Positions 1,393 to 29,046 of a DNA stretch of 29,046 nucleotides are shown here, piece after piece; position 1 is the first letter of the stretch, and each line of letters begins with the position of its first letter. The stretch spans positions 1 through 29,046 of the IMG/VR virus record IMGVR_UViG_3300012940_000085. One strand, given 5' to 3'. The stretch is from a virus. Taxonomy: Duplodnaviria > Caudoviricetes. Both the position numbers and the translations under genes were made by a program. The notes below the pieces were generated by a model, which had not been told where the DNA came from, made no database searches, and saw only the letters and a program-made list of their open reading frames with translations.

Positions 1393-1813
1393 TCGGAATC
1401 CTATACAATGATGCGATACATTCAAGTGTGAATCCTGGCACACTAACAGTAGTAAAATACTGGTTTATAACATATGCATCGACTATTAAGCTGCCGCTGC
1501 TATAATAAGTTGATACTTGAATACTATACTGCCTAAAAGCAATATCTCTATTAGGGTAATCAATTTGAAAGTATCCGTTCACAACTCGAAAAAAAGTCTC
1601 AATTCCAGAAAGTCTAACTACTACATGGCTTATATCCTCAGAGTTATCTAATGAAATGCTTGCTCTGATTGGACCTACATAACTTCCCGAGGCGATATTC
1701 CCCCCTGAATAATTTGCTGAAAATGGTACATCAATTTCGTGATTTTCAAACCCACTTGCAGTACCTGCAAATTGAACTTTATTTGTATCAATCATAATAA
1801 ATCCTATATTCAA
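1379..1813 (-). CDS. Tail tip / minor virion protein
   Basis: Beta-rich composition; in the tail-tip gene run; begins MIDTNK like the upstream MIDRTK protein, so the true start may be the second Met. Confidence 0.6.
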   Translation of the reverse strand: MNIGFIMIDTNKVQFAGTASGFENHEIDVPFSANYSGGNIASGSYVGPIRASISLDNSEDISHVVVRLSGIETFFRVVNGYFQIDYPNRDIAFRQYSIQVSTYYSSGSLIVDAYVINQYFTTVSVPGFTLECIASLYRIPTRVA

Positions 1814-2525
1814 TCACTCCATTTGCACCTGCGGAAAAATCTGTTGCATCTACATAAAATGATAGAGTTGAGCTAGTTATACGAACTTCAATTTGCGAGT
1901 AAAGTCCTTCCGTATAATCGGGCAGTAACGGTCTGCATATATTTGGTGATGATTGATGGAAAAACCAAGCCCGTACTCTTGGGATTTTCCCCAGATTGTG
2001 AGGAGGTACACTCACACTACCCGCTGCTCCAGAGGCAACAGATATAGGAATACTGCTTGGGATTGCTATTTTTTCATAATTATTCCTGGCATTAAGCGAA
2101 TACTTTTGTAGGGTTGGTTTCGGGGTGATTGGCTTAGCCATGACGTTCTTTGCGATGGCGAATAGTTCATACTGTATGGTATAAGATCTGCCTATTGAAT
2201 TTCCATAGTCATACCAACTGATGCCTTTTACATATACGTTATTTTCATCTATGTACGCGTTACAATCAGCAGTTTGAAACGCGGGAACTGATCCAGAAAA
2301 ATTAGGAGTCATGGATCCAAAATCGTTCCATGTATTCCCATTATTTGTAGTAAATCTTCCTTGGAAATACGCACTATCACCAAAATTATGTGCGTGCGGA
2401 TTTGTCGTACTACGAAATACATCAGAAGATGTTGGTGAACTAATAGTCATACTTCCTGTAAATATATCTATAATCTGGTCCATTTTATCGCCACCATAAT
2501 AGCGTAGTTTTGTTCTATCTATCAT
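1788..2525 (-). CDS. Tail tip / minor virion protein
   Basis: 245 aa, beta-rich, HNFG and HNLGKIP motifs typical of tail-associated domains; ATGA overlap with the upstream gene. Confidence 0.65.
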   Translation of the reverse strand: MIDRTKLRYYGGDKMDQIIDIFTGSMTISSPTSSDVFRSTTNPHAHNFGDSAYFQGRFTTNNGNTWNDFGSMTPNFSGSVPAFQTADCNAYIDENNVYVKGISWYDYGNSIGRSYTIQYELFAIAKNVMAKPITPKPTLQKYSLNARNNYEKIAIPSSIPISVASGAAGSVSVPPHNLGKIPRVRAWFFHQSSPNICRPLLPDYTEGLYSQIEVRITSSTLSFYVDATDFSAGANGVIEYRIYYD

Positions 2526-2794
2526 GGTGTTATGCCATCTTCTATGCTTTCTCCCTGATTTGCTGCTGCTGTAGTATATGATTTATCAGGCAGCCTTCCA
2601 GTACGTGTTTTTTCCTTGCCGCCATCAGTTGGGTCAAATGTCTTAAACCCATCACCATCAATCTGTCCTAAATGACCGCCTGTAGCTGAATCGCTTACCG
2701 CTATCCTATTTCTGCCCTGTTCAAAGCGCACTTTGCCATCAAGTGAAGATATTATCCTATTACCAGGTTGAGTAATTTTAGTAATGATTGCCAT
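2522..2794 (-). CDS. Small virion-associated hypothetical protein
   Basis: 90 aa ORF directly downstream of late motif copy 2 and coupled to the next gene. Confidence 0.65.
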   Translation of the reverse strand: MAIITKITQPGNRIISSLDGKVRFEQGRNRIAVSDSATGGHLGQIDGDGFKTFDPTDGGKEKTRTGRLPDKSYTTAAANQGESIEDGITP

Positions 2795-2805
2795 GTCTAC
2801 TTATT

Positions 2806-2821
2806 ATTATGGAGGGGCTGA
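2806..2821 (-). promoter_or_regulatory. Putative late promoter motif, copy 2
   Basis: Exact TCAGCCCCTCCATAAT, 11 nt upstream of the ATG at 2794 (same spacing as copy 1). Confidence 0.75.
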
Positions 2822-2822
2822 C

Positions 2823-2852
2823 TTGAGCCGCACTAAATAGACCTGCTATAAT
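2823..2852 (+). promoter_or_regulatory. Sigma70-type promoter for a small antisense RNA
   Basis: TTGAGC (2823-2828), 18 nt, extended -10 TGcTATAAT (2844-2852); no ORF downstream. Confidence 0.7.
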
Positions 2853-2858
2853 TAGTAG

Positions 2859-2910
2859 TAGGGTTTCAAGCGCAAACAAAGAGCACACCACTTGGTGGCT
2901 CTTTTGCTTT
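2859..2910 (+). ncRNA. Putative ~50-nt small RNA antisense to the anticodon arm of the adjacent tRNA
   Basis: Bounded by a promoter and an intrinsic terminator; 2861-2874 (GGGTTTCAAGCGCA) is identical to 2953-2966 and so is complementary to tRNA nt 27-40. Confidence 0.6.
2878..2910. terminator. Bidirectional intrinsic terminator
   Basis: AAAGAGC-A-CACCA-CT-TGGTG-GCTCTTT hairpin; TTTTGCTTT tail on plus, TTTGTTT tail on minus. Confidence 0.75.
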
Positions 2911-2917
2911 ATTTTGG

Positions 2918-2992
2918 TGGTGGAACTACGGAGAATCGAACTCCGATCTTGCGGGTTTCAAGCGCATGTAATAGCCGTTATACTATAGCCCC
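2918..2992 (-). tRNA. tRNA with GAA (Phe) anticodon and Ala-type acceptor stem
   Basis: GGGGCTA TA GTAT-AACGGCTA-TTAC A TGCGC-TTGAAAC-CCGCA AGAT CGGAG-TTCGATT-CTCCG TAGTTCC A CCA; 75-nt cloverleaf with G3:U70, G4:U69, A73 and a C31/C39 mismatch. Confidence 0.85.
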
Positions 2993-3035
2993 ATTGCAAG
3001 GGCACTACTAAAAAACATAATGCCTTATACTATTT

Positions 3036-3051
3036 ATTATGCTGGGGCTGA
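3036..3051 (-). promoter_or_regulatory. Putative late promoter motif, copy 3 (drives the tRNA)
   Basis: TCAGCCCCAGCATAAT (14/16) immediately after the stop at 3053, followed by AAATAGTA, a leader hairpin (3001-3024) and the tRNA. Confidence 0.7.
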
Positions 3052-3052
3052 A

Positions 3053-4609
3053 CTATGGTGCGAGCACATGGTCACCGTTAAGCTGCGAAAAATCAAGTTG
3101 AAACCATGTCCTGAGGTTATATCTCTTACACTTAAGTATCTGTGTAAATTTAGCGTCTTGAATTTTGTTTGTTATACCAATCACTCGATAATCTCCGGAA
3201 AATTCATCATAATCCACCTCAATAATGTCTGATAATTGGATAGCTGGATTGCCTTTTACTTCAATAGTGATGATATCGTTATACTCTGAATATTCATCCA
3301 ATATGGTTAGTGCAAGTGAATCAGCCTGTGACACTGATTGGATGAAGCTATTGTCAATCGTGAGGACTTTGTCTTCGTATTTTGCCACTGACTCGTCGTC
3401 ATAAGCTTCATATACTGTCGGTTCAACGCTAATTTGTTTTGCAGGTTGCCCCCATAAATAGAGCTGATCTATGTTAACAGAAAAACCATTTGTATTACTG
3501 AAGATGATGTCAAACGTATTTGTTTTTAGTTCAGTAGAAACAACTGAAACTCCTGAATTAACAGGTGTTCCATCCGGTAATGCTGCTGTAAACCATGACA
3601 CTCCTGCATTCTCGCCAAAATCTGGGTCTTCTATACTTAAACATGGATCGGATAACTGGGCTGGAAGCGTGTATGTACCACCAGCAGGCACAACATGAAG
3701 GGTAGTATCTGTATCTGTTTTTGAGTAAACAGGTTGATACTCTTGTACCTCCCTGACATCGGTATTAATGATGACATGGTTAATAATCTCATCGTCTTCA
3801 CTCGTTTCGAGACTATTTATGCTGTCATGGTCGAAATAATATACTGGATCATCTGGCTGCTCTAACCTTGGACGGAACTTGATAATACCTTGCTCATCAA
3901 GCCATAGCATACCCATTTCAGCCTGCATTAAAGGGCGGATTATATCGCCAGCTGTTACTTGTTCTCGCTCAAAAAATAAGAAAGGTATCTTATTCCTACC
4001 TTTTGCAAGGTCATACTGGTCGGGTGTGAGGCCAAATTGTTCAAACACGTTAGCAAGTACTTCACCTGTATAAACGTCCTGCATGGCAATTGTATTCCTA
4101 ATTGGCATATCGTATATCCATGTCAGGAAATCCATTGCCGTAAACGTCGCTGTACCATCTATACGACTGATTTCTGGCATACCCTCGGTAAGGCCTACGA
4201 ATTGCGGTAGAACAGTATTATTGAAGCCTTGAAGCAGCCTAACTGGTCTCTTAGGCAATATGAAGTTAGATATTGGCGAACCAGAATTTGGGGTAAAGTA
4301 CTTATCGTAGTTATTTAGTTGGAAGTCAGCAATAGCAGACACGACCGAGTAGGGAAACTCAAGGCTTCGTTCTACTGACATGTAATTGAGCCGTTCAGAA
4401 TAATCCTGGTACTCATACTGCGACCAAGGAAGCAACGGGTTATCTTCTGCTACTCCAAGTACGTCATTACCGTTTAGTATTGATTGATCGAGCGTGAACC
4501 AATCAATATCGGGGTCGTATTGTTTATCAAATGATATATAGCTGCCCCAAGTAATTAGGCGCATATCTCCATTTGCTAGTTGATTAAATTGAGGGGAAAC
4601 CGCTTGCAT
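3053..4609 (-). CDS. Tail tip / baseplate hub (Tal-like) protein
   Basis: 518 aa, second gene after the tape measure; EMGMLWLDEQGIIKFRPR and GNPAIQLSDIIEV segments typical of hub proteins. Confidence 0.75.
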   Translation of the reverse strand: MQAVSPQFNQLANGDMRLITWGSYISFDKQYDPDIDWFTLDQSILNGNDVLGVAEDNPLLPWSQYEYQDYSERLNYMSVERSLEFPYSVVSAIADFQLNNYDKYFTPNSGSPISNFILPKRPVRLLQGFNNTVLPQFVGLTEGMPEISRIDGTATFTAMDFLTWIYDMPIRNTIAMQDVYTGEVLANVFEQFGLTPDQYDLAKGRNKIPFLFFEREQVTAGDIIRPLMQAEMGMLWLDEQGIIKFRPRLEQPDDPVYYFDHDSINSLETSEDDEIINHVIINTDVREVQEYQPVYSKTDTDTTLHVVPAGGTYTLPAQLSDPCLSIEDPDFGENAGVSWFTAALPDGTPVNSGVSVVSTELKTNTFDIIFSNTNGFSVNIDQLYLWGQPAKQISVEPTVYEAYDDESVAKYEDKVLTIDNSFIQSVSQADSLALTILDEYSEYNDIITIEVKGNPAIQLSDIIEVDYDEFSGDYRVIGITNKIQDAKFTQILKCKRYNLRTWFQLDFSQLNGDHVLAP

Positions 4610-8453: not shown

Positions 8454-8469
8454 ATTATGGAGGGGCTGA
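8454..8469 (-). promoter_or_regulatory. Putative late promoter motif, copy 4
   Basis: Exact motif followed by TAATAGTAGG; positioned to restart late transcription after the 9136-9164 terminator. Confidence 0.75.
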
Positions 8470-8501: not shown

Positions 8502-8795
8502 ATGGATAAGGATCAAGCTAACCAAGTTCTCACAGAAACACTTAACGGCTCTACCGCATCAGATGATTCATCGGCTGCTATTATCATGGTTTCAGTAGTA
8601 ATATGGTTTGTACTGTCAATGATTATGGGATTCGTAGCTTCAGCGATAGCAAACTACAACGAAAGAAGGCAAGTTCATGCTTTTTTTGCGGGATTCTTTC
8701 TTGGTCCGCTAGGTGTGATTGCTTATATGATAATGGGTGAATCTATTGATCTTAGAGTGCGGCTTGAGCAAAAAGCATTAAAGAAAATCAAATGA
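8502..8795 (+). CDS. Small membrane protein (moron), paralog of the next gene
   Basis: Two hydrophobic segments; AFFAGFFLGPLGVIAY; promoter and SD present. Confidence 0.8.
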   Translation: MDKDQANQVLTETLNGSTASDDSSAAIIMVSVVIWFVLSMIMGFVASAIANYNERRQVHAFFAGFFLGPLGVIAYMIMGESIDLRVRLEQKALKKIK

Positions 8796-9118
8796 TGCTG
8801 CGCAACATGAGTCATAAAGTAGACAACCCATATCAAACCAAGCAAATAGTCGTCGCGATAGCAATGATTGGTTTTACTGCGTTTTTAGTTAGTAGATTAT
8901 CTGTTGGCTGGGCATTGCTGTGGCTTGCGTCCTACCTTGTATGGGCTATTGTATGTGCTGATATGGCTAAGCGTAGAGGCAGGTCGCTTGCTGGTGGAAT
9001 AGTTGGCGGATATTATTTTGGTTTCTTGGCTATTTTTTACTATCTAATTGCTGGGGATTCGGTTGAAATGAGAGTAATTAAGGAAGAAGAAGCTAGGCGT
9101 AAGCACCATATCAGTTGA
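8792..9118 (+). CDS. Small membrane protein (moron)
   Basis: Three hydrophobic segments; MAKRRGRS...GYYFGFLAIFYY; ATGA overlap with the previous gene. Confidence 0.8.
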   Translation: MMLRNMSHKVDNPYQTKQIVVAIAMIGFTAFLVSRLSVGWALLWLASYLVWAIVCADMAKRRGRSLAGGIVGGYYFGFLAIFYYLIAGDSVEMRVIKEEEARRKHHIS

Positions 9119-28691: not shown

Positions 28692-29046
28692 TTCACCTCC
28701 ACAAATTCACCGGCCTGAAGCATGTAGAATGTGTTGGCCTTGATTTTCTTGCCATCAACTTTTACGGTTTGTACATCAATACGTTTCCAGCCATATTTTG
28801 CCCGGCCATCTCGTTTCCATTCTGCAAGAGTAATCCAACCACCTTTTTTAGCGCGAGCCTTACCTTCGATACCGACCGATATAGCTACACCTTCAACACC
28901 AGTGTTGGTAGCTGCTGAGTAGTCACCAGTGTTGGTAGCTGCAGATTGGTAACCAGTGTTGGTAGCTGCTGAGTAGTCACCAGTGTTGGTAGCTGCAGAT
29001 CGTCCACCAGTGTTGGTAGCTGCAGATTGGTAACCAGTGTTGGTAG
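28688..29046 (-). CDS. C-terminus of nonapeptide-repeat phage protein (DUF7666-like), 5' end off the right edge
   Basis: Manual translation (SAATNTGxx)n-VEGVAISVGIEGKARAKKGGWITLAEW...VDGKKIKANTFYMLQAGEFVEVK*; stop overlaps the ATG at 28691. Confidence 0.85.
   Translation of the reverse strand, partial: TNTGYQSAATNTGGRSAATNTGDYSAATNTGYQSAATNTGDYSAATNTGVEGVAISVGIEGKARAKKGGWITLAEWKRDGRAKYGWKRIDVQTVKVDGKKIKANTFYMLQAGEFVEVK
28897..29046. repeat. 27-bp coding tandem repeat (about 5.5 units, truncated by the edge)
   Basis: ACCAGTGTTGGTAGCTGC core every 27 nt, encoding SAATNTG(YQ/DY/GR). Confidence 0.9.

Follow-up and report, generated by a model that had tools for sequence, protein, structure and literature searches.

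The window, meaning the whole 29,046-nt stretch of DNA analysed here, is a 29-kb virus record whose minus strand encodes terminase, portal, protease-capsid, tape-measure and tail genes, as assigned with PHROGs. A tail protein gene of 518 aa (3053..4609, minus strand), which has tail matches in PHROGs and is 58-82% identical to its relatives, is followed on the same strand by a 90-aa gene (2522..2794); a similar gene lies directly behind the tail gene in relatives, and searches of PHROGs and Pfam with the 90-aa gene returned zero matches. Because the tail protein shows 82% identity to a gene within a 263-kb Saccharibacteria contig, and because one relative is classed as a provirus, the phage is likely temperate and Saccharibacteria-infecting. 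In the syntenic viral relatives, the next gene follows the tail gene within 20 nt in 5/5 cases, so the cassette is absent there; no tRNA genes were found among relatives L001-L006 (L006 having a different gene order), and a search for the cassette DNA in five related records gave 0/5 matches. The 258-nt gap at this junction of the window therefore represents an inserted cassette. It is bracketed by an imperfect 24-nt repeat, the copies of which belong to a motif repeated in the phage. One DNA sequencing run, possibly the source of the record, yielded a single near-identical contig, with neither variants nor an empty-site joint.

The 24-nt motif occurs in six minus-strand copies (807, 2820, 3050, 8468, 13572 and 15229), all in the structural half, and is also present in relatives L001, L003 and L006; its distribution suggests that it is likely a late promoter. 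One copy (3028..3051, minus strand, with a -10-like hexamer at 3041-3036) is the predicted promoter of a tRNA gene at 2918-2992 (minus strand), from which it would be separated by a predicted 5' leader of about 37 nt that may form a hairpin (2993..3030, minus strand). A second copy (2798..2821, minus strand), absent at the junction in relatives, would restart transcription of the tail genes behind the cassette terminator. Elsewhere in the window, two small hydrophobic genes without PHROGs or Pfam matches are inserted against the tail operon (8502-9118, plus strand), and the motif copy at 8468 behind them would likewise restart late transcription; this gene pair is possibly a second add-on, for superinfection exclusion. 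A tandem repeat with a 27-nt unit (28897-29046) lies within an open frame at the end of the record.

The tRNA gene carries an encoded CCA end and is named tRNA-Phe(GAA) by ARAGORN, and it scores 54.1 bits against Rfam RF00005 (gathering score 29); the two programs thus agree with an earlier note on this DNA, which had proposed a complete minus-strand tRNA gene here. The same note had described a plus-strand unit consisting of a promoter, an exact complement of the tRNA and a terminator, and each element is present. The sigma-70-like promoter with an extended -10 element (TTGAGC-18-TG.TATAAT, 2823..2852, plus strand) scores 10/12, tied best among 10 sites in 1500-4500; shuffled sequences give 9.1 sites, so that the match alone is not evidence, and its assignment to the small RNA draws on a homologous stretch in locus L603 and on the promoter enrichment across the family described below. 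From promoter, fold and family pattern, an anti-tRNA small RNA of about 50 nt is predicted at 2859..2910 (plus strand), with a putative start at about 2859-2861; no Rfam family was found for it. Its 14-nt seed (2861..2874, plus strand) is the perfect complement of tRNA nucleotides 27-40, which comprise the 5' stem strand, the loop and the start of the 3' strand (2953..2966, minus strand). At the DNA level the seed is an exact, separate copy of 2953-2966, 92 nt apart; no third match with two or fewer mismatches occurs in the window, where 0.18 would be expected from shuffled windows.

Both units are predicted to end at one bidirectional intrinsic terminator (2873..2915, both strands), whose hairpin at 2878-2904 is accompanied by T-runs on either strand and has folding z-scores of -3.1 to -3.4 for the plus unit and -5.2 for the minus unit; a terminator scan reported it on the minus strand only. 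Some details of the earlier note had to be narrowed. The 14 nt are fully complementary as described; they had also been taken as unpaired, and the prediction leaves just the 9 nt starting at 2860 free (unpaired probability at least 0.74), the following 6 nt ranging from 0.08 to 0.54 if the RNA extends to 2912. The nine free nucleotides cover the anticodon. The statement that the two RNAs do not overlap holds for the mature forms, whereas the precursor trailer and the small RNA have the terminator in common. The C31/C39 mismatch to which the note drew attention exists in the window tRNA and is not conserved (C-G in L603, G-C in L174), although a 31-39 mismatch of some kind recurs in L411, L175 and L243.

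The chimeric tRNA and its predicted pairing

A search with the 5' end of the window tRNA retrieved 16 viral loci, all of which are ordinary tRNA-Ala(UGC) genes within tRNA clusters. The window tRNA is identical to phage tRNA-Ala(UGC) over the first 26 nt and near-identical in the acceptor, D- and T-arms, and it differs in the anticodon arm. Judged by its sequence, it is a chimera of a tRNA-Ala body and the Phe anticodon GAA; the earlier reading was right about the gene and overlooked the alanine body. The acceptor has G3:U70, G4:U69, A73 and the encoded CCA, so that the alanine-acceptor elements G3:U70, A73 and CCA end are all present; the geometry is a 7-bp acceptor stem with G1:C72 and a 5-bp T-stem, and the anticodon arm contains the C31.C39 mismatch. 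G3:U70 is described as sufficient for AlaRS, which ignores the anticodon (PMC11415595, as far as the available text goes). The window tRNA is therefore predicted to bring alanine to Phe codons, and this alanine identity supplies a reason why it could be toxic. GAA and A73 are elements also read by PheRS, so charging may be mixed.

Co-folding of the small RNA with the tRNA gives a predicted gain of -17.6 kcal/mol and leaves the terminator intact. The seed duplex with its own tRNA is predicted at -27.4 kcal/mol, compared with -10.9 and -10.4 kcal/mol for two Saccharimonadia tRNA-Phe genes, which may not be those of the true host, and with -15.3 kcal/mol for the strongest pairing among 21 further non-family GAA tRNAs. 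The best alternative seed site in the phage genome reaches -16.3 kcal/mol vs -26.8 kcal/mol for the seed's own target. A host tRNA-Phe pattern run on five genomes gave 0 matches, and L451, considered as a stand-in for the host tRNA-Phe, was dropped since ARAGORN makes no tRNA call for it. Across the family, the own duplex ranked first in 16/16 loci, a result that is partly circular. Because the seed pairs poorly elsewhere and persists where the tRNA is broken (see below), the small RNA more probably silences the tRNA than the reverse, and the suggestion of the earlier note that the tRNA might be a sponge for the small RNA is disfavoured.

Family survey and co-variation of the two RNAs

G3:U70 tRNAs with non-Ala anticodons were sought in viral contigs, metagenome contigs and Patescibacteria genomes. 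The sample comprised 120 of about 2500 metagenome stretches and about 780 distinct Patescibacteria genomes, and viral counts are given among the matches listed; the two Saccharimonadia draws contain essentially the same 400 genomes and two further Patescibacteria draws overlap mostly, and these draws are not independent. Genomes G250 and G346, flagged as unpublished, contribute to the scanned totals alone and support none of the claims. Most matches of an initial generic pattern were ordinary tRNA-Ala genes picked up through a slip in register, and these then served as a control. Because G3:U70, U33, purine 37 and W35 were built into the search patterns, their conservation is not evidence. A partner was defined as a perfect complement of 10-17 nt that includes part of the anticodon loop and lies no more than 400 nt from the tRNA, some of the scanned flanks spanning only 300 nt or less.

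Among the matches listed, 421 deduplicated candidates yielded 246 well-formed genes, 175 being dropped for poor stems, and a partner was found for 16/91 non-Ala G3:U70 genes vs 0/155 tRNA-Ala genes, where the longest complement was 9 nt. In an ARAGORN control with 790 unique tRNAs, a partner of at least 10 nt was present for 0/118 Ala, 14/54 non-Ala G3:U70 and 5/618 other tRNAs, two of the latter five being misfiled family members. A complete viral scan gave a partner in 3/14 well-formed genes. In the pooled final tally, a partner accompanies 26/106 non-Ala G3:U70 genes among the matches listed, corresponding to 25 clusters at 85% identity, with the anticodons GUC (11), AUC (4), GAC (4), GAU (2), GAA (2), GUA (1) and AAC (1). 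The remaining 80/106, partnerless at 10 nt among the same matches, include tmRNA ends, doubtful or poor hits and real partnerless chimeras. A search blind to the antisense added 13 further loci, eight of them with a complement of at least 10 nt and all of these with a promoter (8/8); as its pattern was tuned to the family anticodons (purine 34, A/C 36), the anticodon list of this search is partly built in. Within the Saccharimonadia, 2/400 genomes (G210 and G181) have pairing of at least 10 nt, as do further Patescibacteria genomes and several phages. No example from a cultured host with an antisense partner was found among the plasmid and INPHARED phage records searched; blastn of the cassette against INPHARED returned generic tRNA matches only, and the exact two-copy 14-mer pattern had 0 matches in viral contigs.

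The 25 clusters comprise nine convergent, nine tandem downstream, six tandem upstream and one divergent layout, and in 18/25 a promoter stands just upstream of the complement, which begins 4-8 nt behind the -10 box there. In 11/16 loci the complement is preceded, at a distance of 1-10 nt, by the end of a sigma-70-like site (background 1.5% of 2472 positions), and in 8/16 it is followed by a terminator-like hairpin (background 3.9%), the detector having missed the bulged hairpin of the window. The earlier proposal of a dedicated trans-acting anti-tRNA RNA is thus well supported, the antisense lying directly behind a promoter in four gene layouts. Only the window copy has its tRNA under likely late control; other members, for example L603, have an ordinary extended -10 element. 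A leader-trailer helix sealing the CCA reaches -10 kcal/mol in 8/16 family loci vs 5/68 tRNA-Ala genes and is absent in the window copy (-1.9 kcal/mol). Of 20 loci tested, 13 reached the Rfam tRNA gathering score, with L370, L396, L444 and L301 at 65-70 bits; since the other seven fell below it and several members have 8-10-nt loops, some family members may not decode. The neighbours of 12 annotated loci are mostly housekeeping genes, a MazE-like/Doc protein toxin-antitoxin pair being close to one locus, a serine recombinase to another and an integrase to a third.

The test that had been set beforehand, namely whether the 14-mer co-varies with the anticodon arm across homologous loci, is passed strongly by L603, G210 and L411. 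L603 lies in a 37.7-kb virus without the tail protein of the window; its cassette aligns with that of the window over the tRNA, terminator region, seed and promoter and has the anticodon GUC (Asp) vs GAA in the window; 7/14 arm bases differ between the two, and the antisense mirrors six of these exactly and one as a G-U pair, with one terminal mismatch. L411 keeps GAA, and both arm changes inside its 11-nt match are mirrored in the antisense. The Ile and Phe copies of G210 show four arm differences, 4/4 mirrored; in the Phe copy the promoter and the 5' end of the tRNA are lost and the antisense unit is intact. The four copies in G781 differ in anticodon, and a separate partner accompanies each. 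Since the pairing outlasts the change of layout from direct to inverted DNA repeat and stays at the 5' end of the transcript, these sequences argue clearly for selection of the pairing at the RNA level.

Several arrangements within the family were also observed. In L243, L447, L448, L174, L153 and L318, the leader can pair with the CCA end and the trailer, possibly delaying processing. A subtype (L445, L426, L425, L468 and L153) has a complement that covers the 3' side of the loop just before the terminator; in L445, L426 and L425 the tRNA lies directly behind the terminator and has inverted repeats on both sides, which hints that read-through sets the RNA ratio. In L517 and L516 the antisense runs on, with mismatches, into the D-arm, as if born by inverted duplication of the 5' half of the tRNA. 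In G447, an Asp-type cassette (L438/L475) sits between pnp and the gene pair of tgt and a class II synthetase.

A candidate RNA poison-antidote pair and its alternatives

The cassette is probably a toxin-antitoxin pair composed of two RNAs: a tRNA charged with alanine would mistranslate, and the small RNA would block its anticodon. Host AlaRS, blind to the anticodon, would load alanine on the tRNA through G3:U70, and the free tRNA would insert alanine at UUU/UUC codons and poison the proteome. The 50-nt RNA would be made continually with host sigma-70, invade the loosened anticodon loop with its free 5' end and open the arm, so that decoding is blocked and the duplex is possibly exposed to degradation. 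If antidote synthesis stopped, through loss of the element or host shut-off, or if tRNA output jumped through late-promoter activation, for instance when a related phage superinfects, the stable tRNA would win out and the cell would arrest. In a temperate-type phage such as this, the cassette would be an accessory element for addiction or abortive infection. That misincorporated alanine would be toxic is suggested by analogy with the Ser/Leu allo-tRNAs, natural mistranslators that cause arrest and death in E. coli (main text of PMC5389517), and with tRNA-ProX, which impaired growth of E. coli (PMC10404621, available text). The four copies of G781 and the tRNA-side decay in G210 would fit toxin-antitoxin-like behaviour. 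Counted against the toxin-antitoxin reading are the partnerless genes, 80/106 among the matches listed, and the mostly housekeeping neighbourhoods of chromosomal copies; a puzzle that also tells against it is that a late-driven toxin should be made in the phage's own lytic cycle too. G3:U70 chimeras are not always lethal, since a partnerless UCU tRNA sits on E. coli and Kluyvera plasmids. More tentatively, and with some doubt, the cassettes may form a widespread, reprogrammable class of all-RNA modules with a mistranslating-tRNA toxin and a 50-nt codon-mimic antitoxin, coupled in this phage to its late promoter so that infecting relatives would be trapped by abortive infection; alanine-loaded toxin tRNAs would read Asp, Val, Ile, Phe or Tyr codons, and a new specificity would arise when about 14 bases co-mutate.

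Other readings of the pair were weighed against missense toxicity. The synthetases for Asp, Val, Ile, Phe and Tyr read the anticodon, and these are the amino acids of the observed anticodons; this agrees with a toxin that acts without missense decoding, the tRNA stalling or frameshifting ribosomes or jamming an anticodon-reading synthetase as a non-productive mimic. The loosened or enlarged anticodon loops common in the family, the 7/20 loci below the Rfam gathering score and the finding that non-suppressing allo-tRNA variants were still lethal in 2/6 cases (main text of PMC5389517) point the same way. However, the window tRNA folds as a cloverleaf scoring 54 bits and has U33, a purine at 37 and CCA, the four loci named above score 65-70 bits, and G34 and A34 of the same box alternate (GUC 11, AUC 4; GAC 4, AAC 1), as expected if the codon matters, so that we regard a non-decoding toxin as rather unlikely. 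A regulated device for non-lethal mistranslation, or a decoy, appears less likely again: the small RNA would hold the tRNA off until stress or late infection, and the benefit would be tolerance or a decoy for anticodon nucleases. It finds support in the raised carbenicillin tolerance given by tRNA-ProX mistranslators (PMC10404621, available text), in copies within housekeeping regions, in partnerless chimeras on plasmids and in the likely late promoter of the window copy. A selfish or defensive module better explains the patchy presence at many unrelated insertion sites, the presence in a single genome of four copies that differ in anticodon and partner, and the decay of the tRNA half ahead of the antisense half.

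The small RNA could itself be the effector, against a host tRNA or mRNA, with the tRNA as its sponge or as a C4-like antisense regulator of a leader; in L445, L426 and L425, where no promoter is close by, the complement immediately precedes the tRNA and could act in cis. This is very unlikely given the weak seed pairing with the two Saccharimonadia tRNA-Phe genes, the 21 other GAA tRNAs and other phage sites, the lack of a C4 or other Rfam match, the occurrence of an ORF behind the antisense unit in only 3/25 clusters, binding that spares the terminator, and persistence of the small RNA beside a broken tRNA. Anticodon loops are frequent sites of phage integration, and the window 14-mer is a direct DNA repeat in a cassette bracketed by the imperfect 24-nt repeat, features that would suit a leftover of an attachment site or of tandem duplication of the anticodon arm without RNA function. 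Such an origin is hardly credible, because the copy is an inverted DNA repeat in 15/25 clusters, begins 4-8 nt behind the -10 box in the 18 promoter-bearing clusters and keeps G-U-tolerant changes, and because ordinary tRNAs lack such copies.

If true, the toxin-antitoxin reading would add a design with a tRNA as poison and an anticodon-aimed base-pairing RNA as antidote. At about 230 bp and protein-free, such modules would be invisible to protein-based defence catalogues, and they would account for a group of orphan tRNA genes labelled by annotation tools according to their anticodon. In addition, nature would have provided a sequence-specific means of switching off suppressor or mistranslating tRNAs. 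As recognition of G3:U70 is conserved, laboratory E. coli allows a direct test of the claim.

Relation to described systems and lone G3:U70 genes

In type VIII toxin-antitoxin systems (CreTA, SdsR-RyeA), both partners are RNA and lie close by on the same or opposite strands, and translation is the likely target there as here (available texts of PMC10767807 and PMC12737573). The cassette likewise consists of two adjacent non-coding RNA genes, the tRNA and a predicted promoter-to-terminator unit too short for a protein. In CreTA, however, a host tRNA is sequestered by CreT, and CreA uses Cascade to act on a promoter (same sources), whereas in the cassette a tRNA would itself be the toxin, and its putative antidote is encoded separately as a complement of the anticodon arm. 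The CRISPR-Cas setting of CreTA, with its crRNA-like antitoxin, is absent: the window flanks are tail genes, no Cas gene lies near the 12 annotated loci, and no Rfam CRISPR repeat was found in the window or the loci scanned. A weak Cas3-like domain match among the neighbours is a RecG helicase. SdsR and RyeA overlap on opposite strands, whereas the cassette has a separate copy 92 nt away, and in 15/25 clusters the two genes are on the same strand.

Allo-tRNAs of the 8/4 and 9/3 type show a comparable disagreement of identity and anticodon, some mistranslate and kill E. coli, and they occur near protein toxin-antitoxin genes (PMC5389517, PMC7609411); the window tRNA has a normal 7/5 fold, and the main texts of both papers contain no occurrence of 'antisense', while no RNA antidote is described in the passages covered. 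The tRNA-ProX genes of Streptomyces and Kitasatospora are natural bacterial dual-identity tRNAs, mis-annotated by anticodon and toxic in E. coli, with proline identity and a dedicated ProRSx gene (PMC10404621), whereas the cassette has alanine identity and no synthetase gene. They have C1:G72 and an adjacent ProRSx, whereas the window has G1:C72 and tail-region flanks; in the available text of that paper 'antisense' has 0 occurrences and no antisense partner appears. A preprint treats complementarity between E. coli tRNAs (10.64898/2026.09.02.748885, available part).

In the C4 antisense RNA of P1/P7 and the CI RNA of P4, a tRNA-like RNA pairs with a short complement encoded nearby, C4 being the regulator and its targets lying in an mRNA leader. 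Here, by contrast, there is a true Rfam tRNA with CCA, its partner is a predicted free-standing terminated unit, Rfam yields RF00005 only, and an ORF follows the unit in just 3/25 clusters. In the full-text literature covered, that is, main texts mostly of journals open without subscription, no description of a tRNA and anti-tRNA pair of such form was found. The tRNA/anti-tRNA module is thus real, selected and far from described systems, and it is likely an undescribed all-RNA poison-antidote pair.

Several G3:U70 genes of Patescibacteria with UAA, UCG, AUC or GUC anticodons are without a nearby partner (L171/L178 in G077, L152/L176 in G119, L306 in G066, L433 in G482 and L519 in G485), as are two genes of viral tRNA clusters with the Arg anticodon CCG (L033 and L090). 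A lone G3:U70/A73 tRNA with the Arg anticodon UCU occurs at L610:1633-1708 (E. coli plasmid NZ_CP116180.1), at L611:1001-1076 (Kluyvera plasmid NZ_CP123490.1) and in L337. On the plasmids, which are small and Rop-bearing, it has no partner of at least 10 nt within 400 nt, and it is not in the PLSDB gene table, which leaves out RNA genes. It lies between direct repeats, which we take to resemble Xer sites.
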